Positions 3,001-53,802 of a stretch of DNA of 64,000 bases are shown piece by piece. The notes beneath the pieces are model-generated. The model was not told the origin of the DNA and made no database searches. It was given only the letters and a program-made list of their open reading frames with translations. Made by a program: the position numbers and the translations under genes. Position 1 is the stretch's first letter. Every line of letters begins with the position of its first letter. This DNA is from a virus (taxonomy: Duplodnaviria > Caudoviricetes). The stretch lies in IMG/VR virus record IMGVR_UViG_3300000439_000015, positions 21,208 to 85,207 of that record, one strand, 5' to 3'.

Positions 3001-6000
3001 TTACGACCTGACCGACGCATAGGTTCTGCAACGTCGTTGAGGTGAAACCACTGCCTGTCACAACGTTCGATACGCTCAAGGTGTATGCCGTCGCACCAAT
3101 GCTGGCGGTGACCGTAACTGGCTTGCCACTGACGAACTCGTCCTGCAAGAAGGTTTGTGAAATAGTGGTGCCAGCAGGAAGGTTGTTGCCCTGAATCGCC
3201 ATGCCCGAAAGGAAACTTCCGTCGGCTTGGTTGGTGGTGTAATACGAGTTGGAGCCGTTTGTCAAAAACCCGTTAGTGGTATACGAGGACTGGTAGCCGC
3301 CCGTCTGCGAGAAGTTGTACTGAGCCGAGGTGATTGACAAAGGCGTGATTGCCGTGCCTGCGGCAGTTGTCGTGCTGCTGATGGTGATGGTGCCAGAGCC
3401 AACCGATGAAACCGTGGTTCCAAATGGGATGCCAGCACCCAACACAGACATCCCTGCGTACACGCCAGCGGTGCTTGACAGTGAAATCGTGGTGGCACCC
3501 GACGACCATGTAGCGTTTGGTGCGGTACCGACGTTGTAGCCAAGAGCGTTGCCGACTGCGTACAGTTCGTCAATGTTGAAACTTGCTGAACCCGTGATAC
3601 TTGTGCCGTAAGTCTGGTAGCCACCAGAGGCAAGGCTGTTACCCGTGGTGATTGTGGAGCCAGAAACGCTATAGACCGTTGTGTTGCCCAGAAGCGTTGC
3701 ACCGTTGTACACGAGGATGCTGTCACCAGCGCCCAGCGGTGGCGTGGCGACGACGTTGTTTAGCGTATTGGAATAGATAGTTCCCGTGAAGGTGTTGGCG
3801 ACAACTGCCGAAGTTGTGCTCCATGAAACTGTATTGGCGGTTGCGGAAAGGAGCATCTCCACGGGGCCAGCACCGAGTTGTGTACTGCTGGCAAAAGTCG
3901 TCCCTGCTGGCAAATAAGTGCTGGAAACACTTGACCCACCTGTCAAGATGTTGTCCTGCGTCGTACCTGCCTTGGTTACAAAAACTGCTTCACCAGTTGT
4001 GCCCGTAAACGTGTTGGTTGAAACGCCTGAAACGCCTGAGGCAACGGTAGTAACCGTCCCAGGCCCAAGCGTCACCCCGTTACCAGAAACGGTTGTAACG
4101 GTTCGACCAAGTGGGATGGCTGTGCCCCCATTGAATGGCGCACCCACGCCAAACAAAGTGCTGATGTTGTACGCCGTGGCACCAACGGTAAAGGTGCCGC
4201 TGGTAGTGACAGTGTACGCCGTGGTTCCAATGTTGACAGAGGTGATTGTGGGCGTGACGTTTGTGCCTGCGGTGGCTGCAACGTTGGAGTTGAACACGAA
4301 CGAGAAGGTTGAGGTGAAAGTTGTATTGGAAAAGTTGTTTGACGGGGCGGCGTTCAGTGCAACACGTTGTGCGCTAGTGCCGTATCCCGTAGCGTCGTAA
4401 CCAGCGACGCTGTACGTCGTTCCCCATAGAGAGGTTGCCGTTCCGTTAGCCGTAGGGGTCTTACTGAAAGTGACTGTTCCCGTGCCGATTGAAACGATTG
4501 TGGTTCCGTTGGGGATGCCTGTTCCGAAAACGGTGGCTCCAACCTGATAGGTGGCGGTGCTGGCAACCGTGGCGGTGACCGATGCCGTTGTCCAAGTACC
4601 AGTGGAGTATTCACCTACACCATTGGCGTAGATGTGCGCCCAGCCCGTGGGTGTGGGGCTGAGGTACGGAAGCGATGCTGCGTTGCCCGAAAGGAATGAA
4701 GAGGAAATAACCATTTTTTGATTGGCAGCAACCGTGTATGTAGCCGAGTTGGTGAAACTAGCGCCCGACAGAAGAGTGCCGGAAGTTTGATTGACGTACA
4801 CCGCCGTTCCCACGGTGGCGGAAGTGACCAGTGCGCCCGAAAAACTAGCCGTTGAGTTGTCAACGGCTTGGTTTAGACCAACAGTCGTGTTTGTAGTAGC
4901 GATGTAACTGCCACCGCCAAGGGTCGCTGTGTATGAAACGGAATCCGGTTGAGACGATGAGCCTGCGGCTGCATTCGACATGGTGATGGTGCCCGACGTG
5001 GAGTTGACGGCTGTGACGTATGTCGTCGCTGGGATGTTCGTGGAAGTCGTGCTGTCGGTGACGACCATTCCCACTTGGATGCCCCGTGTTGCTGAAACTC
5101 CCTGAATGGTGGTGCTGGCATTTGTTACCACGCCAGAGAAGCCTGCGTTGGGCAACTGCATGACGAAAGTCGAGGGGTTGAGCGTCAGGTTCGTGGTGTT
5201 CCCTGAGCCTGCGATAACGGTCTGGCGCTGAGTGTTCGTGTTGAGGTCGGTGACAATCCAACCATTGGAAATCGAGATAATCTTCCCTGCATTCCACCCC
5301 ATTGAGGCAGGCGTAAGCGTGGTCTGCGGCTTGGTCGCAATGGTGACGGTCTGGCCTACTGCGAAGTAAGCGGTGCTTGACACGTTGATGGCGGTGCTGA
5401 AATAACCAATCGAAATCGAGAGAACCGTGGGCGGCGTGGCGGCTGCGTAGTTTGCCACCGTAGCGTCAGGCAAGATGCTGGTCAGATTGGAAAGCGCCTG
5501 CGCATCACCACTTGTGGCGACGTACCAAGGCGAGGCCGAGCCGTTGCCGACTGCGTAGGGGGTTGGCGCTTGACCGAGGACGTAGGCCGTGCTCTGGGCT
5601 GCTGAAAGGAACTGCCCCATGTACTTGTTCGCTGGCGGCTTGTAGAACTGCACGTTGGGCGACATCACCGTCGAGATGTTCTGGTACCCCTGAGGAAGCA
5701 TCAGCGACGACGTTGGGTAGTCCACGGGGTCTACAGACTGCTTGTACGGGACATTTGGAATCACGCCTGTTGCAGTGAAATCTAACCACTCGCTGTAGTA
5801 AGCGTCAGTCGAGGTGGCGTTTGGCGAGTAGGGGGTCTGCCCCTGTTGCAAGCCTTCCAAGATGGCAACGATTTGACCAGCACGGAATCGAGTGATGTCG
5901 TTGACGTAGAGGAAGAAGTCGCCACCCGTCTGGGCAAACGCCTGTGTTACCGTACCCGTTGCTGAAACGGTGCCAGCCGAGGCCGTGCTCGCCACCGTGA

Positions 6001-11168: not shown

Positions 11169-11930
11169 TTAGATAAGCGAGCGAGAGACGACACCCGTGA
11201 CCTGAAGTTCAGCGTCAAAGGTGACTACGCCCGAAACCGTTGACTTCAGGTCGTACTTCGTCAAGATGCCCTGACCGTAGTATTTCACTGAGGCAGCGCC
11301 ACCAGCAAAGGCACCTGGGTCGGTGGGGCCGTAGACGAAGGAGATGAACTGACCAGCGGTGTTCTGGTAGTTCAGAGCCGACTGCATTGCAGCGTCAAGA
11401 CCAGTAAGGCCGAAGATGGTCGAAGCCGAATCGTAGTGACCAGAGAAGGTGACCGTGTAGTCCTTCAGACCGACGATGAACGACTTGACACCAGAGGCGT
11501 TGAACGAGGTCGTCTCTTCGGCAGCAATGGCAGTTGGGAAGTCCACGTCGTTGATGTATGGTGAAATGTTCCACATTGGAAGCAAGTAGCCCGTACCCGA
11601 AGTCGCACCTGCGGCGATGGTAGCGACGGAGAAGATGCTCGTGCTCGACGTGGTGGGCTGGGTCGCCGTAAGCAGCGGAACGGTCAACGAAGGCAGGGGT
11701 GAAAGGTTCTGGCTGTTGGCGGCGTTGGCGAAGAAACCGTAGTACGACGTACCCGACGAGTTGGTGTACAGAACGTTGTCTGAGGCAAGGAGCGAACCAG
11801 TCGTAACCAACGTACCAGCAGTACCCGTGAACGTCGTGGTGCTCATGGACGTGTAGGTGTTGATGGGCGTGGTTGCGTTCTCGAATCCGAGGGCGAGAAA
11901 GGCATTCTTACCGTGCTGGAAAGTTGGCAT
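11169..11930 (-). CDS. Tail tube (major tail) protein paralogue 2
   Basis: MPTFQHGKNA...ISPYINDVDFPTAIAAEETTSFNASGVKSFIVGLKDYTVTFSGHYD...YYGQGILTKYDLKSTVSGVVTFDAELQVTG, a siphophage tail-tube pattern. Confidence 0.85.
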   Translation of the reverse strand: MPTFQHGKNAFLALGFENATTPINTYTSMSTTTFTGTAGTLVTTGSLLASDNVLYTNSSGTSYYGFFANAANSQNLSPLPSLTVPLLTATQPTTSSTSIFSVATIAAGATSGTGYLLPMWNISPYINDVDFPTAIAAEETTSFNASGVKSFIVGLKDYTVTFSGHYDSASTIFGLTGLDAAMQSALNYQNTAGQFISFVYGPTDPGAFAGGAASVKYYGQGILTKYDLKSTVSGVVTFDAELQVTGVVSRSLI

Positions 11931-11939
11931 TGTTACTCC

Positions 11940-12959
11940 TTAGTAACGGGCGAACCCGTAATAGACCACCGCTGAGGGGCTTGTGCCGCCCAGCGTTACT
12001 GCGAGCCGTGTGTACGAATAAATCGTACCAGTCAAAATCTGAATGCTTGAACCTAGCGAGGTCAAGGCGACACCCTCAGGGCCACCAGTGGCAGGAACCC
12101 ATGAACTACCCGTTTGTGAGTGCTGCAACTGCACTGAAATCGTTGGCGACGTGCCGTTCAGGGTCAAAACGCCTAAGTGCAACTGACCACCGTTCGAGGA
12201 ACCCGTGCCTGAAGAGGTGAGTGAGGCAGCCGTGTAGAACGTACCTGCGCCGTTCAGCACGGTGGCAGGAAGGTACTGACCCACGCCGTTCCACACACCG
12301 CCGTCGGCGGTGGCTTCCATGTCAATGGCGACAACGCCAGCGACAGGCGACTTGATGTCGTACTTGGTTTCCACCACCTGAGCCAAGTGGCAGCGGAAGT
12401 CAGGGCCACCAGTGGCGGTAGCCGTTCCACCATCGGGGAAGATGAGGAATCCGTCGTCATTGTTGCCTTGGAAGGCGGCACCAAAGGCGTTCTCAACACC
12501 GCCAAGCGACTGCTCGAACATGCCCGACATGCTTAGGGAGCCTTCACGCAGGCCCTGAATGAACGACTTGACACCGTTGGTTTGGAACGCAGTCGTCTCC
12601 GTGGCTTCGATGCCTCGTGAGATTGATACGTCGTTGAAGTACTGGGAGAGGTCTGCACCGTAGCCAGCAGGAGCGGTGACGGCGATGGGAACCGTACCGC
12701 TGATGTCGGTTCTTGTGGTCGTACCGCTGATGGTGATGGTCTGGCTCGTGAGCGAGTTTGAGACTGCCGTGATGGTGCTCGAAGGAACTCCAGCAGCCGT
12801 TGCAGCCACGGTCATGCCGACGTAGAGGGGGGCGTTCGTCGCTTCGATGATGGTGATGGTGCTCGACGACGTGGCCCAAGTGCCGTTGACGGTAGCCGAG
12901 GTGAACGTGGGGTTCGAGAAGAGTACTCGTGTGTTCTTACCAATCATGAAAGTAGCCAT
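11940..12959 (-). CDS. Tail tube-like protein paralogue 1 with extra domains
   Basis: LSQYFNDVSISRGIEATETTAFQTNGVKSFIQGLREGSLSMSGMFE aligns with paralogue 2; has an N-terminal insert and a C-terminal beta-rich domain. Confidence 0.75.
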   Translation of the reverse strand: MATFMIGKNTRVLFSNPTFTSATVNGTWATSSSTITIIEATNAPLYVGMTVAATAAGVPSSTITAVSNSLTSQTITISGTTTRTDISGTVPIAVTAPAGYGADLSQYFNDVSISRGIEATETTAFQTNGVKSFIQGLREGSLSMSGMFEQSLGGVENAFGAAFQGNNDDGFLIFPDGGTATATGGPDFRCHLAQVVETKYDIKSPVAGVVAIDMEATADGGVWNGVGQYLPATVLNGAGTFYTAASLTSSGTGSSNGGQLHLGVLTLNGTSPTISVQLQHSQTGSSWVPATGGPEGVALTSLGSSIQILTGTIYSYTRLAVTLGGTSPSAVVYYGFARY

Positions 12960-29809: not shown

Positions 29810-30796
29810 CTAGATAATCGAGTTCCAGAAGAAGCCGAGGTCGGCGGCAACAACCTTGTCGTCGAAGGCGATTTCACCTTCAACACGGTCAGCCTTCAAC
29901 TCTTCCATGCGGAAGCGTGAAACACCAACCGTGGTGCCGAGGCCACCCGAAACGCCAGTCCACATAAACGTGTAACCAGCCGAAGGGGTCATCAGACCAG
30001 GGTTAGGAGCCGAGTAGCACAACAGAGCGTTGTTGTTGGCGGTGAAGTTGTACGAGCCGGTCAAGCCTTCGTCAGCGTTGTTGACGACTGCCTTGGCGAC
30101 GAGCACACGGTCAAGACCGAAGAGTTGAGCAATCAAGTCCTCGGTGATGATGGCACCAGCCTGCGTGTACTTGTAGCGGTCAACCAGCGTGGGGTGAGCC
30201 TTCAACTTCTGAAACACGGGGTACGAGAGCACGAGCGTGTTGGGTTCGTAACCAGTGTTCTGAAGAACCTGATACTTGGCCCACTCGATGTCCACGATGG
30301 GCAGACCGTTGGTGTAGTCAGACCACTTGATGGTGGTCGCCGTACCAGCGGTACCTGCACCAGCGGTTACACCGATAGCGTCGGTGCCCCACACGCCACC
30401 CTGAAAGAAGTCCTGCGCCCACTGCACTTCACGGCGCAGCAAGAGACGCTGGGTGACGAACTGCGTCGCTTCCATGTCGGGGTTGAGGGGGTTGTCGGCG
30501 TTAGCACGGGTCTGGTCGCCAATGTCCTTGTGGAAGGCGAACACGTCGGCCTGATAGGTGTCCGTGGTGAGGCCGTAACCTGAACCAGCGGAAGCCGTAC
30601 CGTCGGCACGACGCTGAGCCTCGTCACGGAACCAGTCGTCCTTGGTGTACTTGAAGTAGAGGTTCGACTTCTTGTCCACTGGAACGACAGGGAAAACCTT
30701 GTCCGCAATGAAGTTGTTGGTGTTCTGCAAGTACGCAACCGAGATGTTCGTCAGGATTGCGTCAATGTGAACGTTGTTTACTGATGGCTGTGGCAT
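29810..30796 (-). CDS. Major capsid protein (HK97 fold, lambda gpE-like family)
   Basis: MPQPSVNNVHIDAILTNISVAYLQ...FIADKVFPVVPVDKKS...RREVQWA...DKVVAADLGFFWNSII. Confidence 0.93.
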   Translation of the reverse strand: MPQPSVNNVHIDAILTNISVAYLQNTNNFIADKVFPVVPVDKKSNLYFKYTKDDWFRDEAQRRADGTASAGSGYGLTTDTYQADVFAFHKDIGDQTRANADNPLNPDMEATQFVTQRLLLRREVQWAQDFFQGGVWGTDAIGVTAGAGTAGTATTIKWSDYTNGLPIVDIEWAKYQVLQNTGYEPNTLVLSYPVFQKLKAHPTLVDRYKYTQAGAIITEDLIAQLFGLDRVLVAKAVVNNADEGLTGSYNFTANNNALLCYSAPNPGLMTPSAGYTFMWTGVSGGLGTTVGVSRFRMEELKADRVEGEIAFDDKVVAADLGFFWNSII

Positions 30797-30814: not shown

Positions 30815-31552
30815 CTAGATAGCACGCACGGCGGCGGCAGCCGACAGAGCGAGGGTGATAACGTCACCAGCAGCCGAGGCTGGGGTGAGCGCAGTACCAA
30901 CGACAAACGGAATCGTCGTTGACGTGACGTTCGTACCCGACAGGTAGAACGTGGTCGAAACCGCACGACCTGAACTGTCAACCGTGATGGGAGCGCCAGC
31001 GGTAACGGCAGCGCCAGCAATCACCTTCGTGATGCCCGAAATCGTGATTTCGGCCTCAGAGTTGCCCTCAACACCAGAGTTGGAGTTCAACTTGGTGATG
31101 GGCTGGTTCTGAAGAACACCGACGGGACGGTCAGAAGCAGCCGTGACGAGGGTGGCAACAGGGCCGCTCTGGTAGGGCTGCGACGAAGGGGTCACGTTGG
31201 CGGTGACGGTAGCCGAGGTCAGCGCCAGAACCGAGAGGTTCACGGCGGTGATGTTGGTACCACTGTAGGTAATGCCCGTGATGAAGGCACCAGCAGGAAT
31301 CTGCGAGGTACCAGCAGCAGCGGTGACGGGAGCGCCAAGGACGATTCCAGCACTCGACGCAACAGTGATGCCAGTAATCTGGCTGCTGTTGGTGGTCGTG
31401 GTACCAGTGAAAGCGGCGGACGACAAGCCTGCAACCTTCACGAACTTGAACTGTGGCGAGGACGACACGATTCCGTTGGTGATGGTTGAGTTCAGGGTGT
31501 TGTCAGCCGTCATCGTAATCTTGACGGCGTAGGGATTCTGCTCGAAAGCCAT
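30815..31552 (-). CDS. Capsid decoration/cement protein (DUF2190-like) with inserted beta module
   Basis: QFKFVKV...RPVGVLQNQP...GITKVIAGAAVTAGAPITVDSSGRAV...ASAAGDVI; sits between scaffold and capsid. Confidence 0.8.
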   Translation of the reverse strand: MAFEQNPYAVKITMTADNTLNSTITNGIVSSSPQFKFVKVAGLSSAAFTGTTTTNSSQITGITVASSAGIVLGAPVTAAAGTSQIPAGAFITGITYSGTNITAVNLSVLALTSATVTANVTPSSQPYQSGPVATLVTAASDRPVGVLQNQPITKLNSNSGVEGNSEAEITISGITKVIAGAAVTAGAPITVDSSGRAVSTTFYLSGTNVTSTTIPFVVGTALTPASAAGDVITLALSAAAAVRAI

Positions 31553-35356: not shown

Positions 35357-36292
35357 TTACATTCCTTCGTCTGCGCCCGTGGCACTACCTAGGCGTTCGG
35401 CAACCATGCTGGCACCTCGTGCAAGCATGGTGTTGTCACGGAGAATAGGACTTGTTGAGCCGCTTGCGTGTTGTTCGGCAACCCAGTTGTGAAGTTCTGC
35501 GGCGTGGTCGTGGGCGGCGATTGCCGACTTCAGAGCGCCCTGCTTCTCAGGGTTAGTCTCCTTGGCAAGGGCGTTTTTCAGCACTTGGCTGGCAATGCCG
35601 TGCTCGAAGGCTGCTGCACGGTGGGCGTTGGCGATTTGTGCGCCAGTACCACCGTGCTGAACAAGGTCACGAGCGTGCGAGGCAGCCATGAGAGCAGACC
35701 AGCCAGCGCCGTCCCGTCGTACATGGTCAAAGCCCTTGTCGAAGGGGTTTGAGGCGTACTGATTGCCGTGAAACTCGTGGCCCTTTACGTCGCCCTTCGT
35801 CACAAAAGACTTTTCAGCACCAGAGAGGATGACGTTGCCGTCGGTCACGCCTGCATTGCGACCAGACGTTGCCTTCATGGTTGCATCGGCGGCTTTCAGG
35901 GTGTTTTCAGCACTGGGGTTGTCGGCAGCGGCGTAGTGTGCGGCTGCTGCGGCTTCGTGCAACTTGGCGGCACCCTCTTCCATTGCGTATGAACGCCCGT
36001 TGGGGTTGTGGTAACTGGCGACAAGTTGACGCAAGCGCCCTGCCTCTTCGAGGTGCATACGAGCCATGCGGTCATGGGCCATGGTAGAAACGGTTGGCGA
36101 CTTTTTGCCTGCGCTCGCTGCCATCTGCGACGCTCGGTCACGAAGTGAGTTCAGAGCATCCCGTGTTTCACCAGTGGAACGAGCCGTGTATTGGTTCCCG
36201 TTGAAAGCATGGCCTGCCAACTCGTACTTCAGGATTTCACTGGCGGACTTCCAAACTGGAACCAGTGCGTCAGTAGAGAAGGGGTTTGTCAT
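35357..36292 (-). CDS. Two-unit GHxFxGNQ-motif cargo polyprotein
   Basis: MTNPFSTDALVPVWKSASEILK-YELAGHAFNGNQYT... plus internal FVTK-GDVKGHEFHGNQY. Confidence 0.75.
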   Translation of the reverse strand: MTNPFSTDALVPVWKSASEILKYELAGHAFNGNQYTARSTGETRDALNSLRDRASQMAASAGKKSPTVSTMAHDRMARMHLEEAGRLRQLVASYHNPNGRSYAMEEGAAKLHEAAAAAHYAAADNPSAENTLKAADATMKATSGRNAGVTDGNVILSGAEKSFVTKGDVKGHEFHGNQYASNPFDKGFDHVRRDGAGWSALMAASHARDLVQHGGTGAQIANAHRAAAFEHGIASQVLKNALAKETNPEKQGALKSAIAAHDHAAELHNWVAEQHASGSTSPILRDNTMLARGASMVAERLGSATGADEGM

Positions 36293-36302
36293 TATGTTTT
36301 CC

Positions 36303-36734
36303 TCACTTTGGCAGGTCAGCGTTGCCGTAGTGGTTTACCGCAGCCATTGTCTGGTTTACTGCCTTGGAAGCGTCTGTCGCTACGTTCTTGTTGCTGTAGT
36401 CCGCAACCTTGGCCCACGTCTTTTGAGCAGCGAGGTGCGCTTGGGCGAGGGCGTTCAGGTTGCCAGCAACGTCTTTGTAGCCAGTTTCGTTTCGTGCTGC
36501 CATTGCTTTGGCTGCTTCACCACGGTGGTACTCCGCCATGCCCAAAGCGTCTGCACGGTTTGGTGCACCGCCAATACGGTCACTGCCAACTTTGGCTGCT
36601 CGTCGCACAATGTTGTCCGTTCTGCCCGAAGTGAACTGGTTGCCGTGAAAGGGGTGACCATCAACGTCGCCTTTAGCCACGGGGTAGCGAGAGAGTGACT
36701 TGAGTAGTTCGTCGGTGTGGAAGCCAGATGACAC
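36303..36734 (-). CDS. GHxFxGNQ-motif cargo protein
   Basis: MSSGFHTDELLKSLSRYPVAK-GDVDGHPFHGNQFT... Confidence 0.75.
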   Translation of the reverse strand: MSSGFHTDELLKSLSRYPVAKGDVDGHPFHGNQFTSGRTDNIVRRAAKVGSDRIGGAPNRADALGMAEYHRGEAAKAMAARNETGYKDVAGNLNALAQAHLAAQKTWAKVADYSNKNVATDASKAVNQTMAAVNHYGNADLPK

Positions 36735-36916
36735 GAGGTTCTCCTTGTAGGGATTTCTACCTCAGATACTACGCCACGATTTCCTAAACCGATGTTCCAA
36801 AACCCCATTGACGGTGGTGATAAACGGTGCTAGACTTCGCCCGACTGACTTGGGGGCGCTGGACACAACGCCAAGTACATTCACACCGACCCCTGCCGAA
36901 AGGTGGGGGATTCGGT

Positions 36917-37414
36917 TTATTGGGGCCTGTTTGCGTCCCAAAGTGAGGTGAAATGGCCTCGCTCCGCTTCGCCAATGTGCTCCAAGAGCAGGTATCCATC
37001 GAGATGGTCTGTCTCGTGCTGAAAGATGCGAGCGAGCAATCCTTCCCCGTCAATCCTGTACTGGTTCCCGTCAAGGTCAAGGGCCGTCAAGGTCGCTTTG
37101 TACGAGCGGCTGATTTGCCACCCGAACTTGGGCACCGACAAGCATCCTTCGGGCGTGACCTCGATGTCAAGGGGGTCAGTGAAAACCTCTGGGTTGATGG
37201 CGACGTGAGCGCCCGTGCCGTCGCCGCTGTCCCAAACGAACATGCGGTGCGAGTAGCCGATTTGGTTGGCGGCAAGCCCAACACCGAGGTGAAAGTACAT
37301 GGCCTCAACCATCTCGGCGGCAATCATCTTGATGTTGTCTGTGATTTCACTGACCGAGGTCGTGGGGGCTTCCAAAATGGGGTCGCCATAGAAACGCAGG
37401 GCTGGGATGTTCAT
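36917..37414 (-). CDS. def: Peptide deformylase
   Basis: All three PDF motifs present: GVGLAANQIG, EGCLS, HETDHLDG. Confidence 0.95.
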   Translation of the reverse strand: MNIPALRFYGDPILEAPTTSVSEITDNIKMIAAEMVEAMYFHLGVGLAANQIGYSHRMFVWDSGDGTGAHVAINPEVFTDPLDIEVTPEGCLSVPKFGWQISRSYKATLTALDLDGNQYRIDGEGLLARIFQHETDHLDGYLLLEHIGEAERGHFTSLWDANRPQ

Positions 37415-37677
37415 CGTGCGCCCATCTCTCTCTTTGCCTCTTCGAGCAGTTCGGCGGTGAAGTCCTCTGGCGACAGTTCGGTCTTGGCGTGGGCCATCAA
37501 CTTGCCGCAAGCGATGCTGAACGCCCATGTGTACAGGCTGAGTTCCTCGTCGAGGTGCGTCAACTCCTTGCGGTAGCCGAGAACCATCTGGTCGTGCTTG
37601 GCAATCAGCCCTGCCGTCCCAGTGCGCATGGTAGCCAACTTCTCTTCGAGGTCGGCAATCTGCTCCGACTTACGCAC
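37411..37677 (-). CDS. Hypothetical coiled-coil protein
   Basis: 88 aa; overlaps neighbours by 4-8 nt. Confidence 0.6.
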   Translation of the reverse strand: MRKSEQIADLEEKLATMRTGTAGLIAKHDQMVLGYRKELTHLDEELSLYTWAFSIACGKLMAHAKTELSPEDFTAELLEEAKREMGAR

Positions 37678-37822
37678 GGTACTTCTCTGGCACTGGGCCT
37701 GTGTACGGAGCGCCGTTCAGGTCTGAGGTGAACGGGAAACGTGTCGAGCACTGCTGGCACATGACGTAGGTCTTAGCGCCTGCGTTCATCAGAATCCACT
37801 TGTGGAAGGCGCAACTAGCCAT
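37670..37822 (-). CDS. Small Cys/His (Zn-ribbon-like) protein, 50 aa
   Basis: MASCAFHKWILMNAGAKTYVMCQQCSTRFP...; below the track length cut-off; operonic overlaps. Confidence 0.5.
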   Translation of the reverse strand: MASCAFHKWILMNAGAKTYVMCQQCSTRFPFTSDLNGAPYTGPVPEKYRA

Positions 37823-37988
37823 GCTGAACCGTCATGACGTATTTGCTGGCGTTGGCGGTGAACGCCTGCGCCTCTTCCTTCGTGGCGAAGTCGGGCGATG
37901 TCATGACGGTGTAGTAGTAGCCATCACCACCTTGGTAGGTCTTGAAGAAGAACCCGTTGCCATTCCAAATCTCGACGACTTTACTCAT
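37815..37988 (-). CDS. Small hypothetical protein
   Basis: MSKVVEIWNGNGFFFKTYQGG...; TGATG coupling to the upstream gene. Confidence 0.5.
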   Translation of the reverse strand: MSKVVEIWNGNGFFFKTYQGGDGYYYTVMTSPDFATKEEAQAFTANASKYVMTVQHG

Positions 37989-38191
37989 CAAATAAACGCC
38001 TTCATGTCTTGCGCTTCTGCTTCCCATTGCTCTGGTGAACCGAGACGAACGACGTGCAAGCACACGTCCGTGCCGTTCTCCATGAGTTCTGATTCGGTGT
38101 CGGTCAACTCCACGCCTGCGTGGGTTTCGCACACCTGCTGGGTGCAGAACTTGTTGTCAATGCCGTACTGAAGCCACTCATCAAAGGTCAT
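37988..38191 (-). CDS. Small Cys/His hypothetical protein
   Basis: MTFDEWLQYGIDNKFCTQQVCETHAG...DVCLHVVRL. Confidence 0.6.
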   Translation of the reverse strand: MTFDEWLQYGIDNKFCTQQVCETHAGVELTDTESELMENGTDVCLHVVRLGSPEQWEAEAQDMKAFI

Positions 38192-38201
38192 GGCGTTCAC
38201 C

Positions 38202-38735
38202 TTAGCAGCCGTCGGCGTTCCATTCTGGGTGGATTCCGCCATTACGGTTCCAATAGAAGGCGGCGACACGGAACTGGTCTGCGATGCTCGCATCTTGGGC
38301 GTACTGGGCGGTGATGCCAAGGGCGTGAGCGCCGAACTGCCACGTTGGGGGCATGAACTGGAAGATGCCTGCTGCGCCTTCTGGGTTCACCTCACGGTAG
38401 TTGTGGAAGTCCGTGGGGGTCGAGCGAGATTCACGCCACATGACGCAGGTGAAGGCCGCTCGGCTCGGTGGTGGGAGCAAGTCCGTGTAGCCACCAGAGG
38501 GGGCTGTGTGGCTCGCTACGGGCTTTGGCTTGGCTTTGTGGTGAACCACAGGCTTGGCGACGTGAGCGTGCACCACGGGGCGGCTGTTGCCGTACCAGAA
38601 GATGGTAATCATCTTGGGCGTAGTCGTCCGAGCGGCGAGGTGATAGGCCACCTTGGGCGCAGCGTGGAACGTTCCTACGACAAGGGAGACTACGACTGTC
38701 AGTGCGAGGAAGCCACCTCGCACCGTGCCTAGCAC
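38202..38735 (-). CDS. Secreted Rpf-like/lysozyme-fold lytic transglycosylase
   Basis: Hydrophobic N-terminus, Pro/Lys/Val linker, then FTCVMWRES...GAAGIFQFMPPTW...ADQFRVA...HPEW; start codon uncertain. Confidence 0.8.
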   Translation of the reverse strand: MLGTVRGGFLALTVVVSLVVGTFHAAPKVAYHLAARTTTPKMITIFWYGNSRPVVHAHVAKPVVHHKAKPKPVASHTAPSGGYTDLLPPPSRAAFTCVMWRESRSTPTDFHNYREVNPEGAAGIFQFMPPTWQFGAHALGITAQYAQDASIADQFRVAAFYWNRNGGIHPEWNADGC

Positions 38736-38930
38736 GAGCCTGCCTTGGTAGAGGGATAGAACGGTACCGCTATTGGGTTGCTGGACACAACGCACTCCTT
38801 TGGTTGCCCATTGGGGGATGCACCAGTTTACCCGAATGTGACGGATAAGGCAAGTACTAAGCGATTTCCTTGCAAATAAAGGGTTTTGCCCACACCGTCG
38901 AGGTGATAGAAAAAAAACATGCAAAAAGAC

Positions 38931-38960
38931 TTGACAGATGTCACACGGGGGTGCCATACT
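38931..38960 (+). promoter_or_regulatory. Strong sigma70/SigA-type promoter (antisense to the cassette)
   Basis: TTGACA-gatgtcacacgggggtgc(18)-CATACT with TGn extension. Confidence 0.75.
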
Positions 38961-38966
38961 GGTTAG

Positions 38967-39294
38967 GTAAGAAAGCAGCAGTGCCGAGGTGCGCTTGTAA
39001 AGTCCCCACGAGAAAGTGGTCGAGCAAGCCGAAGGCCAGCCTGTGAGCCGTACCACCTGTTTGCGACACGGGCGCATTCAGTAAGGCCGTAGGGAGTTCG
39101 GAGCGAACTACGGCGAGGTGGGTACGGAACTCCTAGTGGGGGTGAGTGTTAGGCGTGAGGAAAAGCGCAAACCACCGAACCGCAAGGGGTAGGGTCGGGC
39201 GCTCGTTGGGAAACGGGTAGTCCGCCAGTGACATCAGTACGGAAAACCAAGGCTACCGAGTTAGAAGTCCCCTCAGCAAAGGCTGGGGGGATTT
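38967..39294 (+). ncRNA. Candidate structured non-coding RNA (~330 nt), family unassigned
   Basis: No credible ORF; bounded by promoter and terminator. Nested helices 38990-38996/39163-39169, 39004-39009/39136-39141, 39049-39058/39116-39126, 39086-39092/39108-39114. Confidence 0.65.
39267..39294 (+). terminator. Intrinsic terminator (possibly bidirectional)
   Basis: gtcccctcagc-aaag-gctgggggat-ttt; convergent with the stop of 39296-40885. Confidence 0.7.
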
Positions 39295-39295
39295 T

Positions 39296-40885
39296 CTATT
39301 TGTAGACCTCGTTCAGCACTTGATAGTGGATTTGGCTTGCCTTGTCGTCGTCGCCTGCCTCGTGCGCCTCTTGCTCTTGGGCGAGCAGTTTGGCAGCCTT
39401 GTCGCTGAGGTGTTCTTCCTTGGGCTTCGTTGCCTTTTGGAACGGGAGCAGGGCGTACTTGGCCCAGATTTCGCCAGCGGTTTTGGAAACGTCGCCTTTT
39501 TGGACTGGGCTTTCCCAAACAACTGCGTCGGGGTTCCAGATTGAGTAGTTCGTGTGGTCTTTGGGCTGCGAAATGTCTTGTTGTGAAACTAGGGTCATCT
39601 TGCCATCTACGTTTGCGGTCTTTCCATCCTCTTCGTTGGTTAGGCCGCTTGTAAATAACTTCGCTCCATCTCTAAGTTTCCCACGGAGTACGGTTCCGCC
39701 CTCACCAGCGTAGGCACGAGCGACTTCTTCGCTATCGGTTGCGTAAACTGCTTTTCCGTCTAGACCGATTTCTTTCTTGCCGCTTAGGGTATCCGAGACT
39801 GCTTGCGAACTTCTTACGCCTCGATAAACGGTTACTCCACTTGCGTCAGTCGTTTCCCACTGATTTCCGTGAAAGACGTGGCCCTGAACGTCGCCCTTTT
39901 GGACGTGCCGCTCTACCATGGACTTCGCCCACGAGTAGCCAGCATCACCACCCCACGCATCCCACGCCACACGTCCGTGCGACGGGTATCCGTGTTCACC
40001 CTGACGGAAGCCTTCTGCCTTCTTGTCGGGCTGGTGACGGTCAAAATACGCCTTCATCCGCTTCAGAGTGTCCAGTGAAATCTGGTGCCCGTTACCGAGG
40101 TCTGACGCACGCTTGCGCCCGACGTTGGTGAACCCTGAGCCAGCCTTGCCGTCGGCAATCCATTCCAATGCTCGCTTAGCGGCCTCTTGTACCCCCTGCG
40201 GCGGAGTGAACGTATCCTTCTTCACCGCAAAGTGGGCAGCGAGGGTTTGGAACACGTCAATAAGGCGGTTCAAGTTGTCAATCATCTGGGCGTACTTGTC
40301 GTCCATGCCGAGTTGGTGAAACTCATCCTGTAGCGCCTCTAGACGGGGCCGTAAGCCTGCCAGCGTCTCCAAGGTCAGTCCTGCGTTCCAAAGGGCTGTG
40401 GCGACCTCTGGGGTGGCTTCACGGACACGAAAGTTGCAGAGAGCGTGGTCAATGCCGACTATTCCACCTTGGGCAAACATCAGGTTCTTGGGACGACGGT
40501 CTGCGTTGGCGGTGATGTAGTCGAACAGGCGTAGGTTTCTGCCTTGGTTATCGTTTGGGTAGCAGTCCTCGCTGCCGAGTTCCAATCCTGACTTGCCGTC
40601 AATGTACGGCATAATCACCATCTTGGCATCGGTTCCCACAAAGCGGCAGTCACGGACGGGGGCGTTCATCGCCTCTCCGACACGGGCGGCGAGATACTCC
40701 TGAGCGGCGAGTATTTCAGCACGGTACAAACGACCCGTCTTGTTGCCGTGCCAGTCCTTCATGTGCTTCTCGACCCCTTCGGAGCCATCAGCAAAGCGAA
40801 CACGGAACATTCCGTCGTTCTGGTTGCCCTTCACAAACATGGGTTCACGAGACACGATGTCCGTGCTGGTGAACGGCACGAACAT
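39296..40885 (-). CDS. Polyvalent cargo protein: HipA/PI3K-like kinase + conserved phage head-associated domain + GHxFxGNQ + ADP-ribosyltransferase-like domain
   Basis: EYLAARVGEAM...FDYITANADRRPKNL...GIDHAL (kinase); PPQGVQEAAKRALEW...AWDAWGGDAGYSWA; VQK-GDVQGHVFHGNQW; VYRG...GKAVYATDSEEVARAYA...YSIWNP (ART-like). Confidence 0.8.
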   Translation of the reverse strand: MFVPFTSTDIVSREPMFVKGNQNDGMFRVRFADGSEGVEKHMKDWHGNKTGRLYRAEILAAQEYLAARVGEAMNAPVRDCRFVGTDAKMVIMPYIDGKSGLELGSEDCYPNDNQGRNLRLFDYITANADRRPKNLMFAQGGIVGIDHALCNFRVREATPEVATALWNAGLTLETLAGLRPRLEALQDEFHQLGMDDKYAQMIDNLNRLIDVFQTLAAHFAVKKDTFTPPQGVQEAAKRALEWIADGKAGSGFTNVGRKRASDLGNGHQISLDTLKRMKAYFDRHQPDKKAEGFRQGEHGYPSHGRVAWDAWGGDAGYSWAKSMVERHVQKGDVQGHVFHGNQWETTDASGVTVYRGVRSSQAVSDTLSGKKEIGLDGKAVYATDSEEVARAYAGEGGTVLRGKLRDGAKLFTSGLTNEEDGKTANVDGKMTLVSQQDISQPKDHTNYSIWNPDAVVWESPVQKGDVSKTAGEIWAKYALLPFQKATKPKEEHLSDKAAKLLAQEQEAHEAGDDDKASQIHYQVLNEVYK

Positions 40886-41866
40886 TTAGAAACTCATTCC
40901 GTGACTTTGCCCGTAAGTAACTGCGCCCATTTGGAAACGGCTCATCATGTCGTTGTAATCGCTCGCACGACCCATCGAGGCGAATGTGTCTCTCAAACCA
41001 GACAGCGTGTTTGCCATGCCCATGATGTCGTTTCTGCTGGGGTTGCCAAGCAGTGAAAAGTTTGGCATGCCTGTCAAGCGACCCAACCTCGTGCCCACCG
41101 TGGCACCGTCGAAAGCCATGGCGTGGTCAATGCCGAGAATCGAACCGTCCTTTTGCACCCAGACGTTGCCTGGGTTCATGGCGTTTCGACCACCAAACAC
41201 GCCGTCGCCGTTGCCGATGAGTTCACCAAAGAAGCGCAACTGGTTCAAGCGATTGGCGTTGTCGGGGTTCAGACTGTGCAGGGCGCTGGGATTGTTTCCG
41301 CCATTCACACCGGCAATGTCGGCGGCAGGCTTGCCTTCAAGCCATGGTTGGACAATCTGGTTTTTGTTTCCAGCAACACCCTCGCAACAGCGGATGGGCA
41401 TGCCGAGGGCTTCGCCAACCTTAGATGACAAGATTTCGTTCTGCGCTTGGCGTGAGGCGGTCAAACCCTGAGCAGGGAACGGCTTGAAGTTCTTGATGGC
41501 TCCGACAGAACCGTCCTTCATCTCGACCTTTTGAAAGCCTTTGTTCATTGCTCCGCCCATGCGCATTACACCACCTAACGGCTTGTTGATTTCCGAAGTG
41601 TTCAACCCTACCGCTTTGCCCGTTGTCTTTAGGGGCGGCGCTGGCTTAGATGGTGCGGCGGCTGGTGCGGCGGCACGCCCAGCGGTTGGTCGGGGCGCAC
41701 GGCCCACCCGTGGAATGGCTGGCTGAACAACACGAACTGCACGTCCACCGCCGTTTCCACCTGCACCGCCTCGGAAGTTGCCGTTCTCGTCAAGCCATTG
41801 GTTACCGTTGAACTTGTGGCCTGGCAACTCGTATTTCAGTACACGGAGAATCTGACGGAAGTCCAT
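40886..41866 (-). CDS. GHxFxGNQ-motif cargo protein with HipA/PI3K-like kinase domain
   Basis: MDFRQILRVLK-YELPGHKFNGNQW...NEILSSKVGEALGMP...MNPGNVWVQKDGSILGIDHAMAF. Confidence 0.75.
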   Translation of the reverse strand: MDFRQILRVLKYELPGHKFNGNQWLDENGNFRGGAGGNGGGRAVRVVQPAIPRVGRAPRPTAGRAAAPAAAPSKPAPPLKTTGKAVGLNTSEINKPLGGVMRMGGAMNKGFQKVEMKDGSVGAIKNFKPFPAQGLTASRQAQNEILSSKVGEALGMPIRCCEGVAGNKNQIVQPWLEGKPAADIAGVNGGNNPSALHSLNPDNANRLNQLRFFGELIGNGDGVFGGRNAMNPGNVWVQKDGSILGIDHAMAFDGATVGTRLGRLTGMPNFSLLGNPSRNDIMGMANTLSGLRDTFASMGRASDYNDMMSRFQMGAVTYGQSHGMSF

Positions 41867-50046: not shown

Positions 50047-50343
50047 TTAGATTTCTGTGTAAGCAACGGTGGTTGAGCCAGAGGCGGTGATGGCGTAAAT
50101 GGCACCTGTGTAGGTTTGGAACGTAGTTGACTGACCAGCCGACAAAACGATGCCGCTGCCAGCCGTAGCGACGGTACTCAGTGAAATCGTGACTGTGTTG
50201 GAGCCAGTGTTGGTCAGGAATACCTGCAAACGGTTGACATTCGCTGGACGGATAAGCGTTCCGCCGACGGGGGTTGCTGATACCGATACCGAACCATTGC
50301 CTGCGTAAGCCTGCGAGAGGTTATTGGAAATGTGTGAAGGCAT
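50047..50343 (-). CDS. Small beta-sandwich putative virion protein
   Basis: NRLQVFLTNTGSNTVTISL...GIVLSAGQSTTF...GAIYAIT. Confidence 0.6.
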   Translation of the reverse strand: MPSHISNNLSQAYAGNGSVSVSATPVGGTLIRPANVNRLQVFLTNTGSNTVTISLSTVATAGSGIVLSAGQSTTFQTYTGAIYAITASGSTTVAYTEI

Positions 50344-52001
50344 TAGTTGCTCCCTAGGAATGGCTTGGGGTCGTCGTACTCGGTGGGCAGGTCAACGTTT
50401 ACGCCAGAACCCGTACCGCCGATGCTGAACCCACGAATCTTGCCCTTCTTGACAAGTTCCCAAGCCCATGGCTCCCAGATAACGCCGAGGAATGAGGTGC
50501 CAGCAGGGAAGGTCGTCTTGACAACGGTGTTGCTATCGGCCTTCAACATGGGGATTTCCACCTCGTAGGGCCACGTCATAGCCTCGACCCACTTGCCAGC
50601 CACGATGTCTACGTTGTGCTGAAGTCGAATGTCACGGTCTGCGTTCTCAACGTAGTCCCAGAGGGCCTTTTGGATTTCTTCGGGGTCAGTCCACTCGTTG
50701 TGAGCGTCCATGCGATTTGGAACGTACCAAGGGGCAAGCGTGAATCGCTTTTCGTCGTTCTTGCGGATTGCGCCAATCATTTCACCAAACTCTTCAGACT
50801 TCTGAAGAAGGTTGGCATCCTGCATGACTTCGGGGTTCACCATTTCTGGCGCTTCTTCCTCGATGACGGTCATGTTTTCAGGAACAACCTTGGGTTTCTT
50901 CTTGCCTGCGTAGAAGGCACCGATTCCACCACCGTTGTCCGAACCGTCAACGTGTACGGCTTCAACGCTGGGGCCGTCCATCTTCTCCACGCTGGTGCGG
51001 CCCTTCTTGTACAGAATGCCGACGGCGGTGGAGTGGGCATCGAGCGCAGGAACGACGTTGAACTTGCACCAACCGTTGGACACGCACGAGATGGCAACCC
51101 AGTCGCAGCCGTTTTCACCAGAGGCGATGCAGTTTCCGCACGTCATGCCCTGAGCAAGGTACGGCGAGAAGTCGGTGTAGGCAGCGTCCGTTGTGGGGAT
51201 GCGACCTAGTTCCTCAACCATGTCGTCTAAGGCTTCAGCAAGTTCAACCTGCCATGGGTCGAGGCCGTCCTTCCAATCCTCACCGTGGATTTCACTAGAC
51301 GAAGAAGAACTCGACGACGTGCTTGATGAGGAAGAACTGCTTGACGATGACGAACTGCTGCTGGATGACGAGGATGACGAAGAGGAACTCGAACTTTCCT
51401 CAGTGTCGTCTGAACTGTCGCTGGTGGAATCGTCGTTTTGTTCGCCCTGAACCGCTTGAAGAATGGCGGCAACCGTGTTGGGGTCAAGTTGTTCTACCTG
51501 AACGGAGTTGTCGGTGGCAGTCTCAACAGGAGCAGGCTGAGCGAACACGGGGGTGGGTGCCATGAAAGAAAGGGGGAAGTTGATGGCCTTGTCAATGGGG
51601 CTACACACGTCTTGTTCCACCACAGAACCGCAGACCACACATGGGTTTACCCCATCAAATGAGTTCTGGCTTTTGGTGAAGGGGTGCTCTACGTCGGCAA
51701 GGCCCTTGGCAATGTTGCGAGAAATAAGGCGCTGCTCGGCTTCGGCATCAATGGCCTTTTCACCAAACACTCGCTTGGAAAGACGCTCCCACAAGGGATT
51801 ATTCTCTTTGGCGTTTGGAACGAGAACGATGGAAACGCCCTCTTCACCAGACTTGTTGACCGACATAAGGTCGGCAGAGGTGTACCCGTCCTGAGCAAGG
51901 TCGGCTGCGCCCTGTCGCACCTCAAATGCAACGGACTTGTTCGCAATGATTTCACTCAACGAGACGTTGGCGACCACATCAAGAATGTTTACTTGTTCCA
52001 C
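50343..52001 (-). CDS. Prohead (capsid maturation) protease, XkdF/Peptidase_S78-like, with long acidic N-terminal extension
   Basis: C-terminal KRFTLAPWYVPNRMDAHNEW...IQKA...IRLQHN...FLGVIWEPWAWELVKKGKIRGFSIGG; directly downstream of portal. Confidence 0.88.
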   Translation of the reverse strand: MEQVNILDVVANVSLSEIIANKSVAFEVRQGAADLAQDGYTSADLMSVNKSGEEGVSIVLVPNAKENNPLWERLSKRVFGEKAIDAEAEQRLISRNIAKGLADVEHPFTKSQNSFDGVNPCVVCGSVVEQDVCSPIDKAINFPLSFMAPTPVFAQPAPVETATDNSVQVEQLDPNTVAAILQAVQGEQNDDSTSDSSDDTEESSSSSSSSSSSSSSSSSSSSSSSSSTSSSSSSSSEIHGEDWKDGLDPWQVELAEALDDMVEELGRIPTTDAAYTDFSPYLAQGMTCGNCIASGENGCDWVAISCVSNGWCKFNVVPALDAHSTAVGILYKKGRTSVEKMDGPSVEAVHVDGSDNGGGIGAFYAGKKKPKVVPENMTVIEEEAPEMVNPEVMQDANLLQKSEEFGEMIGAIRKNDEKRFTLAPWYVPNRMDAHNEWTDPEEIQKALWDYVENADRDIRLQHNVDIVAGKWVEAMTWPYEVEIPMLKADSNTVVKTTFPAGTSFLGVIWEPWAWELVKKGKIRGFSIGGTGSGVNVDLPTEYDDPKPFLGSN

Positions 52002-52167: not shown

Positions 52168-53802
52168 TCACGAGGTCGGCCCTTGGTTGTTTGTTAGGGG
52201 GCCGTTCTGACCAGTTGTGTTTGCGGTTGTGCCTGCCGCCGACGGTGGGATTTCACCAGACTGGCCTGGGTAGCCTTGACTTGAAATGTCGGCCTGAATA
52301 CCTGAGCCGCCCGATTGGTCGTTGGGGCCGCCTTGTGGGTTCTGTACGCCCGTGGGTTCGGTGTTGCCCTGTGCGGTGCCGACGGTGGATGCTGAACCAC
52401 GAGCGCCGATAAACGCCTTCTTGGGGTCTGCCATCTCTGGGTCGGGCTGAATCTGGTTGCCGCCGTAGCGAACGTTGGCAGCCAAACCGTTTTCCTCTGG
52501 GCGGAACGCTGGCATTCCAGCAAGTTCACGCAAGTAATCTTCGAGGTTGTTGTCTGGCGTAAGCAACTGGCTCTGGGTCAGGTTCGTCAGGAATGCGCCC
52601 AGTTCCACCAAGTCAACTTGGGTTACCTGTCCGTAAGTGAGGGTCGGGCAGTGAGCGGTGTCAAACCCGTTCAGCGACATCAAGCGTGGAATGGCGTGGC
52701 TGTTGAACACTTCGGCAATGAGGCGAATCCAAGATTCCACTGCTGCCATGAAGAGGTCTACTTTGGAAGCGCCAAGGGCGAACGAGCCGACGGCCTCGTG
52801 TCCCAGCATGATGAAGTCTGCCAAGCAGGTCATCGCAATCTGCTGGTTGTAGCGAGAGATGATTTGGTCAGTGTTGAACTGGCGAGAGCCGCCTGAGTTC
52901 AGCAACTTGAAGTCAATCAACTGCTTGCCGTTCTCGTCAAACATCATCGGAAGGACGATGCCTTCGGTTTCGTTGCGCTTTACGCCTCGGACGATGCGCT
53001 CCATGGCATACAACGACGACTTTTCAGCAGGCGTAGCGTCTGCGGCGAGCCATTCGGCAGGGACGTAGCCGACAGGAAGGCCAGCGAGGTCACGCTCAAC
53101 GCCGACGGCCTCAAACTCTTCGATACGACGCTTGTAGTACCACGCCTTGAATGCTGAACGCAGGACGGAGCGACCTTCGGGGTTGCCACGAGCCGACGTG
53201 GTGCGGAACAGGAGCGACTTCTCGATTGGAATGACGTTCAAGCGACCCGTTGTGGGGTCACGTTGCACCATGGCCTTGATTCCACCACTCTCGTCGAACT
53301 GCCACTGCCACAAACTGTCCTGCGCACGCATGACAATCTTGCGCCAGCCAATCTTGTTGTCGCTGAACTTGGAGCGCTTTGAGGGGTCTTTCTGGTCAGG
53401 CCCCTTGCGCTGCTTGTAGACAATCTCGAAGTATGACCACCCGTACACGAGGAATGAGGTGATGGCAATCATGAGTTCATGCCACGAGTGGCTCATGTCG
53501 TCCATGCACTCCTGCACGAAGTCGGCTGCCAACTGGTCGTTGTTGTTCGGCGTTTCACCAGTGGGGTCGGTGTGGGGGTCTACACGCCAGTCCACCTGAA
53601 GAATGACACGCTCGATGGCGAAGATGATGGCCCCGATAACGGGGTCGTTTTCAGCCATGTCACGGTAGGCTGTGAGAGATTGGCGGCCTCGAAGTTGGGG
53701 AAGGATGTCGTCAATGACGAATCCACCCGTGCGCCACAAACCTGTGGCACCGAGTTCGCTGAAGTTATCCAGTTGAGGCAGTTGGTTTTCGTTATCTGCC
53801 AT
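52168..53802 (-). CDS. Portal protein (DUF935/Mu gp29-like)
   Basis: ELGATGL...LPQLRG...YRDMAENDPVIGA...IPIEKSLLFR...GNPEGRSVLRSAFKAWYYK...GVERDLAGLP. Confidence 0.92.
   Translation of the reverse strand: MADNENQLPQLDNFSELGATGLWRTGGFVIDDILPQLRGRQSLTAYRDMAENDPVIGAIIFAIERVILQVDWRVDPHTDPTGETPNNNDQLAADFVQECMDDMSHSWHELMIAITSFLVYGWSYFEIVYKQRKGPDQKDPSKRSKFSDNKIGWRKIVMRAQDSLWQWQFDESGGIKAMVQRDPTTGRLNVIPIEKSLLFRTTSARGNPEGRSVLRSAFKAWYYKRRIEEFEAVGVERDLAGLPVGYVPAEWLAADATPAEKSSLYAMERIVRGVKRNETEGIVLPMMFDENGKQLIDFKLLNSGGSRQFNTDQIISRYNQQIAMTCLADFIMLGHEAVGSFALGASKVDLFMAAVESWIRLIAEVFNSHAIPRLMSLNGFDTAHCPTLTYGQVTQVDLVELGAFLTNLTQSQLLTPDNNLEDYLRELAGMPAFRPEENGLAANVRYGGNQIQPDPEMADPKKAFIGARGSASTVGTAQGNTEPTGVQNPQGGPNDQSGGSGIQADISSQGYPGQSGEIPPSAAGTTANTTGQNGPLTNNQGPTS

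Follow-up and report, generated by a model that had tools for sequence, protein, structure and literature searches.

Among the described RNAs, the closest in general build are GOLLD and ROOL, which are linked to phages or prophages, and raiA and OLE, which are bacterial. All four are multi-domain RNAs supported by covariation and equipped with a promoter and a terminator of their own, features that are also found at the locus described here. This locus lies in the window, the whole 64,000-nt stretch of DNA that was analysed, which comes from the 85-kb record of an uncultivated freshwater tailed phage. In contrast to the four large RNAs, the RNA of this locus has no match to their Rfam models and is half their size or less (330-440 nt); it does not lie beside tRNA genes, of which the window holds none, and it occurs in only a handful of lake metagenome contigs. 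A second likeness is to CsrB/RsmZ and 6S RNA, with their hairpin domains bearing conserved purine-rich loops, strong expression signals of a constitutive type and variable number of domains, whereas the GGA enrichment, the repeats and the Rfam match of the CsrB, RsmY/Z and 6S RNAs are absent from it. Lambda OOP and P22 sar likewise possess their own promoter and terminator and are encoded on the strand opposite to the neighbouring genes. They are, however, about 70 nt long, overlap a coding region and act by pairing, while the present RNA is 330 nt long, overlaps no coding sequence and appears to have a fold of its own under selection. Finally, a total of 10,006 candidate structured RNAs has been predicted in viral sequences, phages included (Fremin, Bhatt and Kyrpides 2023, PMC10690425). 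That set is reported to be rich in tRNA-like elements, in terminators and in leaders that regulate in cis; its candidates belong to the same general class as the present RNA, being intergenic, covariation-supported and derived from uncultivated phage contigs, and the present RNA differs in being long, stand-alone and antisense-oriented. It represents a new, rare family absent from Rfam 15, within the known general kind of orphan structured phage RNAs.

The unit occupies positions 38931-39295 of the plus strand, where a promoter and a terminator bracket approximately 330 nt. The promoter (38931-38960, +) is of the sigma-70 type, TTGACA-18-CATACT. Judged by the sigma-70 hexamers and a spacing of 16-18 nt, it shows 10/12 matches, an 18-nt spacer and a TG before the -10 hexamer; an A-rich tract lies upstream (38901-38928), and the site ranks first of the 4 found within 36000-41000. 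The predicted transcript of about 331 nt (38965-39295, +), whose 5' end is placed from the -10 hexamer, closes with an intrinsic terminator (39264-39295, +) consisting of a 14-pair hairpin and a U-run (TTTT), directly abutting the stop codon of a convergent 529-aa gene. Both signals had been named in an earlier note on this DNA, as a TTGACA-18-CATACT promoter and a GC hairpin with a T-run, and both are present, the promoter with its hexamers and spacer length conserved in homologues. The positions of promoter and terminator are conserved in the homologous loci L026, L030, L031, L034, L052, L054 and L055. The -35 hexamer and the 18-nt length of the spacer are kept in L030, L031, L052, L054 and L055, with a spacer sequence that differs at many positions, and the -10 hexamer across the syntenic loci is either CATACT or TACTAT. 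The stem and loop of the terminator vary among these loci, the L030 stem having two compensatory pairs and a different loop; on the minus strand, the terminator has no U-run. The same note had regarded this as the only plus-strand unit of the late region, a claim that is contradicted by a second, small unit at 36808-36909 (+), composed of a TTGACG-17-TAGACT promoter and a terminator with a GAAA loop.

On sequence grounds, the region of the RNA unit is non-coding. The RNA strand is devoid of ATG, the longest start-to-stop ORF on the plus strand measures 24 aa, and indels relative to the homologues are mostly of 1 nt, leaving no conserved reading frame, in agreement with the previous statement that the unit encloses no credible ORF. 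On the minus strand, a 291-aa ORF (38202-39077) overlaps the 5' third of the RNA together with its promoter. The first ~110 residues of this ORF look non-protein, and the C-terminal 177 residues are protein-like, comprising a signal or anchor helix and an Rpf/transglycosylase-like domain. Given this non-protein-like beginning, and given that the Rpf-like gene call begins at the equivalent of ~38735 in five homologous loci, the 291-aa ORF is taken to be an artefactual extension of an Rpf-like gene of ~177 aa. The Rpf-like (transglycosylase-like) gene itself (38202-38735, -) is divergent from the RNA promoter, has homologues that carry PF06737, and accompanies the RNA locus in conserved synteny.

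On the other side of the unit, the 529-aa gene, which has no assigned function (39296-40885, -; stop codon 39296-39298), is convergent with the RNA. The last ~60 residues of its product (39296-39480, -) reappear, with 69-88% identity, as the C-terminal end of otherwise dissimilar proteins (P0012-P0015; 810-983 aa), and in the loci compared, the proteins with this type of C-terminus directly adjoin the RNA locus. Farther out, the portal gene (52168-53802, -) and the gene for a protease-like or MuF-region protein (50343-52001, -) lie on one side, and the scaffold (30815-31552, -) and major head protein (29810-30796, -) genes on the other. The space between the protease-like/MuF-region gene and the scaffold gene is filled by a long run of unknown genes and an exonuclease gene on the minus strand, and the RNA gene thus sits antisense in an accessory block between the portal/MuF-like and scaffold/major-head genes.

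About ten distinct homologues were collected, several of them near-identical, and all derive from phage contigs of bog or humic lakes. A pattern search of IMG/VR gave two further contigs with the RNA; contigs encoding proteins similar to the Rpf-like neighbour gave L030, L031/L032 and L034; a metagenome pattern scan gave L035-L040, the distant L036 among them; and the C-terminal domain of the 529-aa neighbour, used as query, gave L052/L053, L054 and L055. Most homologues are more than 90% identical, and L030 is 76.8% identical. L036 is a phage contig of 45% GC. Its RNA is encoded on the opposite strand, within a 1.2-kb gap that follows a small-terminase gene; this gap contains no overlapping gene and includes a second strong terminator. 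With the window, L036 has in common a 31-nt core of the first hairpin domain (H1), identical except for a variable loop base, and the apex of the last (H4). The orientation of the RNA is opposite to that of the surrounding genes in every homologous locus, L036 included. In the L036 lineage as a whole, a non-coding stretch of 0.6-1.2 kb follows the small-terminase gene (L036:1580-2760, L046:3547-4458, L047:569-1187) and holds at least one opposite-strand RNA unit and a second strong terminator. Among these contigs, L046 has a 21-nt direct repeat, TTTCCTACAAGGCATAACGAG, in two copies, and the H1/H4-like part occurs only in L036.

The comparative data support a predicted fold of four hairpin domains, H1 to H4. 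H1 (38975-39044, +) is a long irregular hairpin made up of helices 1-4, with 4 compensatory pairs in helix 3. Its core (38993-39025, +) runs from GCUUG through the internal loop UAAAGUCC to CCAC-GAGAAA-GUGG, and returns through U to CGAGC; the internal loop is invariant, and the apical loop has the form GAGNAA. H2 (39048-39128, +) is a three-way junction containing helices 5-7, in which a closing stem (39048-39058/39117-39128) carries the hairpins H2a (39059-39079, +) and H2b (39086-39114, +). L030 has a shorter hairpin with another sequence, CCAG-UGCG-CUGG, in the place of H2b. H3, in the window of type A (39129-39190, +), consists of an outer helix, P3 (39129-39139/39180-39190), the inner helices GUG/CAC and GCGU/GCGC, and an 8-nt loop, GAGGAAAA (39157-39164). 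The outer helix varies at 8 of 10 pairs, 4 of which are changed on both sides, and in L030 it forms an uninterrupted 11-pair helix. H4 (39193-39226, +), a hairpin of 14 pairs, carries at its tip a tetraloop of the GNRA type, GGGA (39208-39211); its apex, CGUUGGGAAACG, is common to the window and L036, with a basal stem of CGGGC/GUCCG in the window vs UGUC/GACA in L036. A linker with the conserved GGAAAACCAAGGCUACC (39227-39263, +), absent from L031, extends from H4 to the terminator. As a separate observation, AAAGUCCCC (39000-39008), located within the invariant loop of H1, shows complementarity to the 3' arm of the terminator plus its U-run, GGGGAUUUU (39283-39295), and the 5' arm of the terminator repeats AAGUCCCC. 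This complementarity is possible in L030 too and, with a bulge, in L036, and may be a chance product of C- and G-runs.

The fold proposed in the earlier note was of a different shape. All six helix strings that it quoted occur where it placed them, but of the four nested helices that it built from them, only 39049-39058/39116-39126 and 39086-39092/39108-39114, both within H2, are supported by the homologues. The two long-range helices fail: that between 38990-38996 and 39163-39169 is broken in L030 by a U to C change at 38995, for which the local partner compensates by A to G, and that between 39004-39009 and 39136-39141 is broken in L037, where GUGGGG has become CGGGG opposite an unchanged partner. 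The suggested pseudoknot of ggagttc with gaactcc involves a partner hairpin that is absent in L030, and the pairing of ggtagtc with ggctacc is disrupted in L037 by a U to C change that improves H4. The supposed cc-GCAA-gg tetraloop, CCGCAAGG, is instead the 3' strand of the H3 outer helix. Substitutions in L030, L037 and L031 are compensated within local hairpins and not in the proposed long-range pairings. What stands of the original description is an antisense, structured, non-coding orphan RNA of no Rfam family, produced by a putative separate transcription unit; its long-range and pseudoknot fold does not.

Three covariance models were used, R1 covering H1-H2, R2 covering H3-H4 and R3 covering H3B, a second form of H3. 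In the window, R1 matches 38965-39128 and R2 matches 39128-39226, and R1, although built without L036, detects L036 as well (44.8 bits, E 9e-9). Under R1, 97.5% of cells are paired and 10 pairs are changed on both sides, compared with 2.2 +/- 1.3 double-changed pairs in shuffles (0/500) and 0-3 in slid controls. Under R2, 92.3% of cells are paired and 7 pairs are changed on both sides, compared with 3.3 +/- 1.2 in shuffles (3/500) and 0-3 in slid controls. Compensatory pairs in the homologues, a property that the claim of a structured RNA had been staked on, therefore lie above shuffles in H1-H2 as well as in H3+H4, while covariation in H3B is not significant. These figures are supportive rather than conclusive, since the alignments were fitted to the models and contain about six distinct rows each; most of the signal comes from L030, L036 and a small number of point changes, and shared ancestry can carry sequences past covariation controls even where no structure exists. 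Of the 74 modelled pairs in the window, 9 are G-U, corresponding to A-C on the opposite strand, and the folding-energy z-scores of window-type RNAs are lower on the plus than on the minus strand, both of which point to the plus strand as the structured one. The comparison of folding energy with shuffles, on which the earlier claim had also been made to depend, is favourable in one part and weak in the other: z is -2.41 for 38965-39294 with the terminator included, and -1.0 for the body alone. In the homologues, the corresponding body values without the terminator are -2.0 (L030), -2.4 (L031), -0.3 (L026) and -2.3 (L036).

The weak body z-score of the window is one of the points that would fit conserved intergenic DNA without a functional RNA, whose signals and apparent structure would come from recent ancestry and a G+C-rich composition; the others are the identity above 90% of most homologues and the fact that unstructured related sequences can pass covariation controls. 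This explanation is given a low probability. The helices persist through double changes both in L030, at 76.8% identity, and in L036, which belongs to an unrelated phage, and in L030 one hairpin has been replaced by another hairpin. In addition, the promoter hexamers and the spacer length are maintained while the spacer mutates, and a phage of 45% GC carries the 31-nt core in other genomic surroundings.

The domains are combined differently in related phages. L026 and L034 keep H1-H2, and in the place of H3 and H4 they have the shorter H3B with the loop UAGGAAAC, H4 being missing. Folded singly, H3B has the same outline as type A H3, and an AGGAAA-type loop is present in both; R2 does not detect H3B, and R3 detects type A only at E 0.47. 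We infer that H3A and H3B are homologous. L054 (5453-5715, -) and L055 (5053-5320, -) retain the promoter, the terminator and H3B, and have about 190 nt of unrelated, well-folding sequence in place of H1-H2; the H3B loop of L055 is UAGAAAAC and not UAGGAAAC. In L033, a related RNA is composed of a GNRA-capped hairpin, a second hairpin and H3B, and directly after it, on the same strand, comes a homologue of the small RNA unit. L031 (2331-2772, -) and L041 (11366-11805, -) encode a 442-nt RNA in which a window-type RNA is fused to an L033-type RNA; the latter part contains a GNRA-capped 10-pair hairpin, a second hairpin and H3B, and the fusion lacks the linker GGAAAACCAAGGCUACC of the window. 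L046 and L047, relatives of L036, have its 3' hairpin together with a different 5' part. No single domain is present across all related loci, H4 being missing from L026/L034 and H1-H2 from L054/L055. The members of the family are assembled from exchangeable domains that have been swapped, lost, duplicated or fused between related phages.

The core pattern is absent from the genome_contigs collection (one genome per species, 185,579 species), where pattern searches gave 1 chance hit; exact and degenerate core patterns in IMG/VR recovered only near-identical contigs plus chance hits in coding DNA; ten related phage records had no R1 match; and the INPHARED phages had no DNA match, either to the RNA in distant blastn or to 20 kb in megablast. 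Within the 85-kb phage record the RNA is single-copy. The 529-aa neighbour has relatives at ~60% identity, which form part of much larger proteins and whose loci all lack the RNA. R3 has a weak match at 11919-11974 (+; 20 bits, E 0.01), at the junction between two minus-strand genes, which is probably due to chance.

Rfam 15 comprises 4227 models, including those for RNase P, tmRNA, SRP, 6S, GOLLD, ROOL, raiA, OLE, riboswitches and ribozymes, and at gathering thresholds it gave 0 matches over the whole window. With cmscan at E<=10 on slices of 1001, 341 and 461 nt, taken from the window and the longest homologue, only chance-level matches far below threshold were obtained, mir-3150, CRISPR-DR21 and RF_site1 among them, and ARAGORN, which looks for a cloverleaf or for a tRNA-like domain with a tag reading frame, reported 0 tRNA or tmRNA genes in the whole window. 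The proposed cmscan comparison with Rfam, raiA, ROOL and GOLLD included, thus yields no family, and the assertion that the RNA is not tRNA, tmRNA or RNase P agrees with the ARAGORN result and with the lack of an RNase P match at E<=10.

By eye, some segments recall catalytic RNAs: GUAAAGUCC and ACGGAAAACCAAGGCUACC resemble CR-I and CR-V of RNase P, respectively, and GAGCCGUAC...GUACGGAAC bears a likeness to group II domain V. Such short resemblances and a multi-domain fold with GNRA loops of the kind typical of ribozymes would suit a diverged catalytic or housekeeping RNA (RNase P, tmRNA, SRP or a group II intron fragment) or a new ribozyme. The model searches on 341-1001 nt at E<=10 and the absence of a tmRNA in ARAGORN stand against this origin, as do the location of AAAGUCC in a local internal loop rather than in a long-range P4 and the loss of supposedly essential segments from L026/L034 or L054/L055; it is regarded as highly improbable. 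For RNase P RNA in particular, the criterion is a long-range P4 between CR-I (GGAAAGUCC) and CR-V, a P1-P2-P3 frame and an S-domain. Here only the heptamer AAAGUCC is present, and the comparative data assign it to a local hairpin, as part of its internal loop; L031 has no CR-V-like segment, and no match is obtained at E<=10. Across RNase P, tmRNA, 5S, SRP, group II domain V, boxA/boxB and K-turn, only short words were found, in segments that are not conserved and with no model in support. A sponge of the CsrB/RsmZ type, acting on CsrA, would be expected to display many GGA motifs in its hairpin loops, more than composition predicts, and is unlikely, since GGA is not enriched (7 vs 10.6 +/- 2.6 in shuffles; AGGA 1 vs 2.6). 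A type III antitoxin RNA (ToxI-like), which would have tandem direct repeats of a ~30-40-nt unit ahead of a toxin gene on the same strand, was also rejected: tandem repeats are absent from 38700-39400, and neither of the nearest genes shares the orientation of the RNA, one being divergent from it and the other convergent.

The position of the unit invites an explanation in cis. Fully antisense to a block of co-directional minus-strand genes, and keeping its opposite-strand orientation in all homologous loci, L036 included, the RNA could pair or collide with a minus-strand transcript running from the 529-aa gene through the 550-nt gap into the Rpf-like operon. Read-through from the upstream gene is plausible, given that the terminator hairpin lacks a U-run when read on the minus strand. 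Cleavage by RNase III or transcriptional interference might then uncouple or silence the Rpf-deformylase genes until late, although both this antisense action and this outcome are considered unlikely. A pairing role needs no conserved fold, yet compensatory changes and strand-specific G-U pairs are observed; the loops remain invariant while the stems change; and the RNA of L036 lies in a 1.2-kb gap without an overlapping gene.

The order of the elements, first a structured RNA, next a terminator and beyond it the antisense of more than 10 kb of minus-strand genes, also recalls a riboswitch-like leader that controls its own terminator, read-through giving a long antisense RNA against the cargo genes. 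Two alternative pairings would be available for such a switch, between GGCUACC of the linker and GGUAGUC in the 3' strand of H4, and between AAAGUCCCC in H1 and the terminator 3' arm plus U-run. The first of these is the pairing lost in L037 to the benefit of H4, and L031 has no linker. In L036, the second strong terminator would block read-through into the genes, and no riboswitch family in Rfam 15 is matched, leaving this mode of action very unlikely.

The small plus-strand unit raises the question of a partner. In L033, its homologue (3440-3570, -; 84% identical, promoter included) lies directly downstream of the relative of the large RNA on the same strand, and this adjacency, along with the co-occurrence in the window, suggests that the two RNA genes travel together. 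A target-like sequence of the small RNA in the Rpf leader is kept at all syntenic loci. These observations, with both RNA genes present in the window, could reflect a two-RNA circuit in which the large RNA is the partner or sponge of the small one (36808-36909, +) and the Rpf-like operon is tuned by the pair. The complementarity between large and small RNA in RNAduplex is, however, no better than in shuffles (33/200 as good), and the seed complement GCGUUGUGUCC of the small RNA is missing from the large RNA, so that the circuit is given only the slightest probability. RNAduplex of the large RNA with the Rpf leader was also no better than shuffles.

The reading favoured here, on balance the probable one, is that of a free-standing ncRNA gene of ~330 nt in the phage accessory block, whose functional step would be that of a trans-acting, protein-binding RNA. 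In this proposal, host RNA polymerase would produce a stable RNA from the near-consensus promoter of host type. The RNA would act in trans by binding at least one protein through UAAAGUCC and GAGNAA in H1, the A-rich AGGAAA-type loop in H3 and the GNRA loop in H4, and would serve as a decoy, sponge or scaffold in the interaction of phage and host, like the variable accessory genes around it. Action in trans is suggested by the strong expression signals of host type, by a fold under selection with loops that stay constant despite changing stems, by the rapid exchange of domains among close relatives and the transfer to an unrelated phage, and by the sporadic distribution and the position among variable accessory genes. 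As regards pairing targets in the rest of the 85-kb genome, four distinct 13-mer sites were found vs ~0.8 expected, a slight excess over chance, with none of them at a translation start or indicative of a target. The functional step taken by itself, a stable, host-made, trans-acting and protein-binding accessory RNA, is put forward tentatively. More speculative still is a modular phage-RNA system, in which the domains H1, H2, H3A/B, H4 and the L033-type unit would be shuffled, fused and exchanged between unrelated phages, as protein domains are in an arms race, each binding or mimicking a component of the host or of its defence, and in which the RNAs would work with the co-inherited small RNA.

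Phages have few long stand-alone structured RNAs, and for almost none of these is the function known. The weight of the present one is limited for now by its rarity, and it would be a local curiosity if it merely regulated the neighbouring Rpf-like operon. It nonetheless offers a compact, testable case, with clear expression signals, a four-domain fold and invariant loops that mark the likely contact sites, and nature already supplies variants with single domains swapped, lost or duplicated. In conclusion, should the RNA turn out to work as a decoy or scaffold for a protein of the host or of a defence system, an RNA-based strategy of domain shuffling would join the accessory genes through which phages interact with their hosts.
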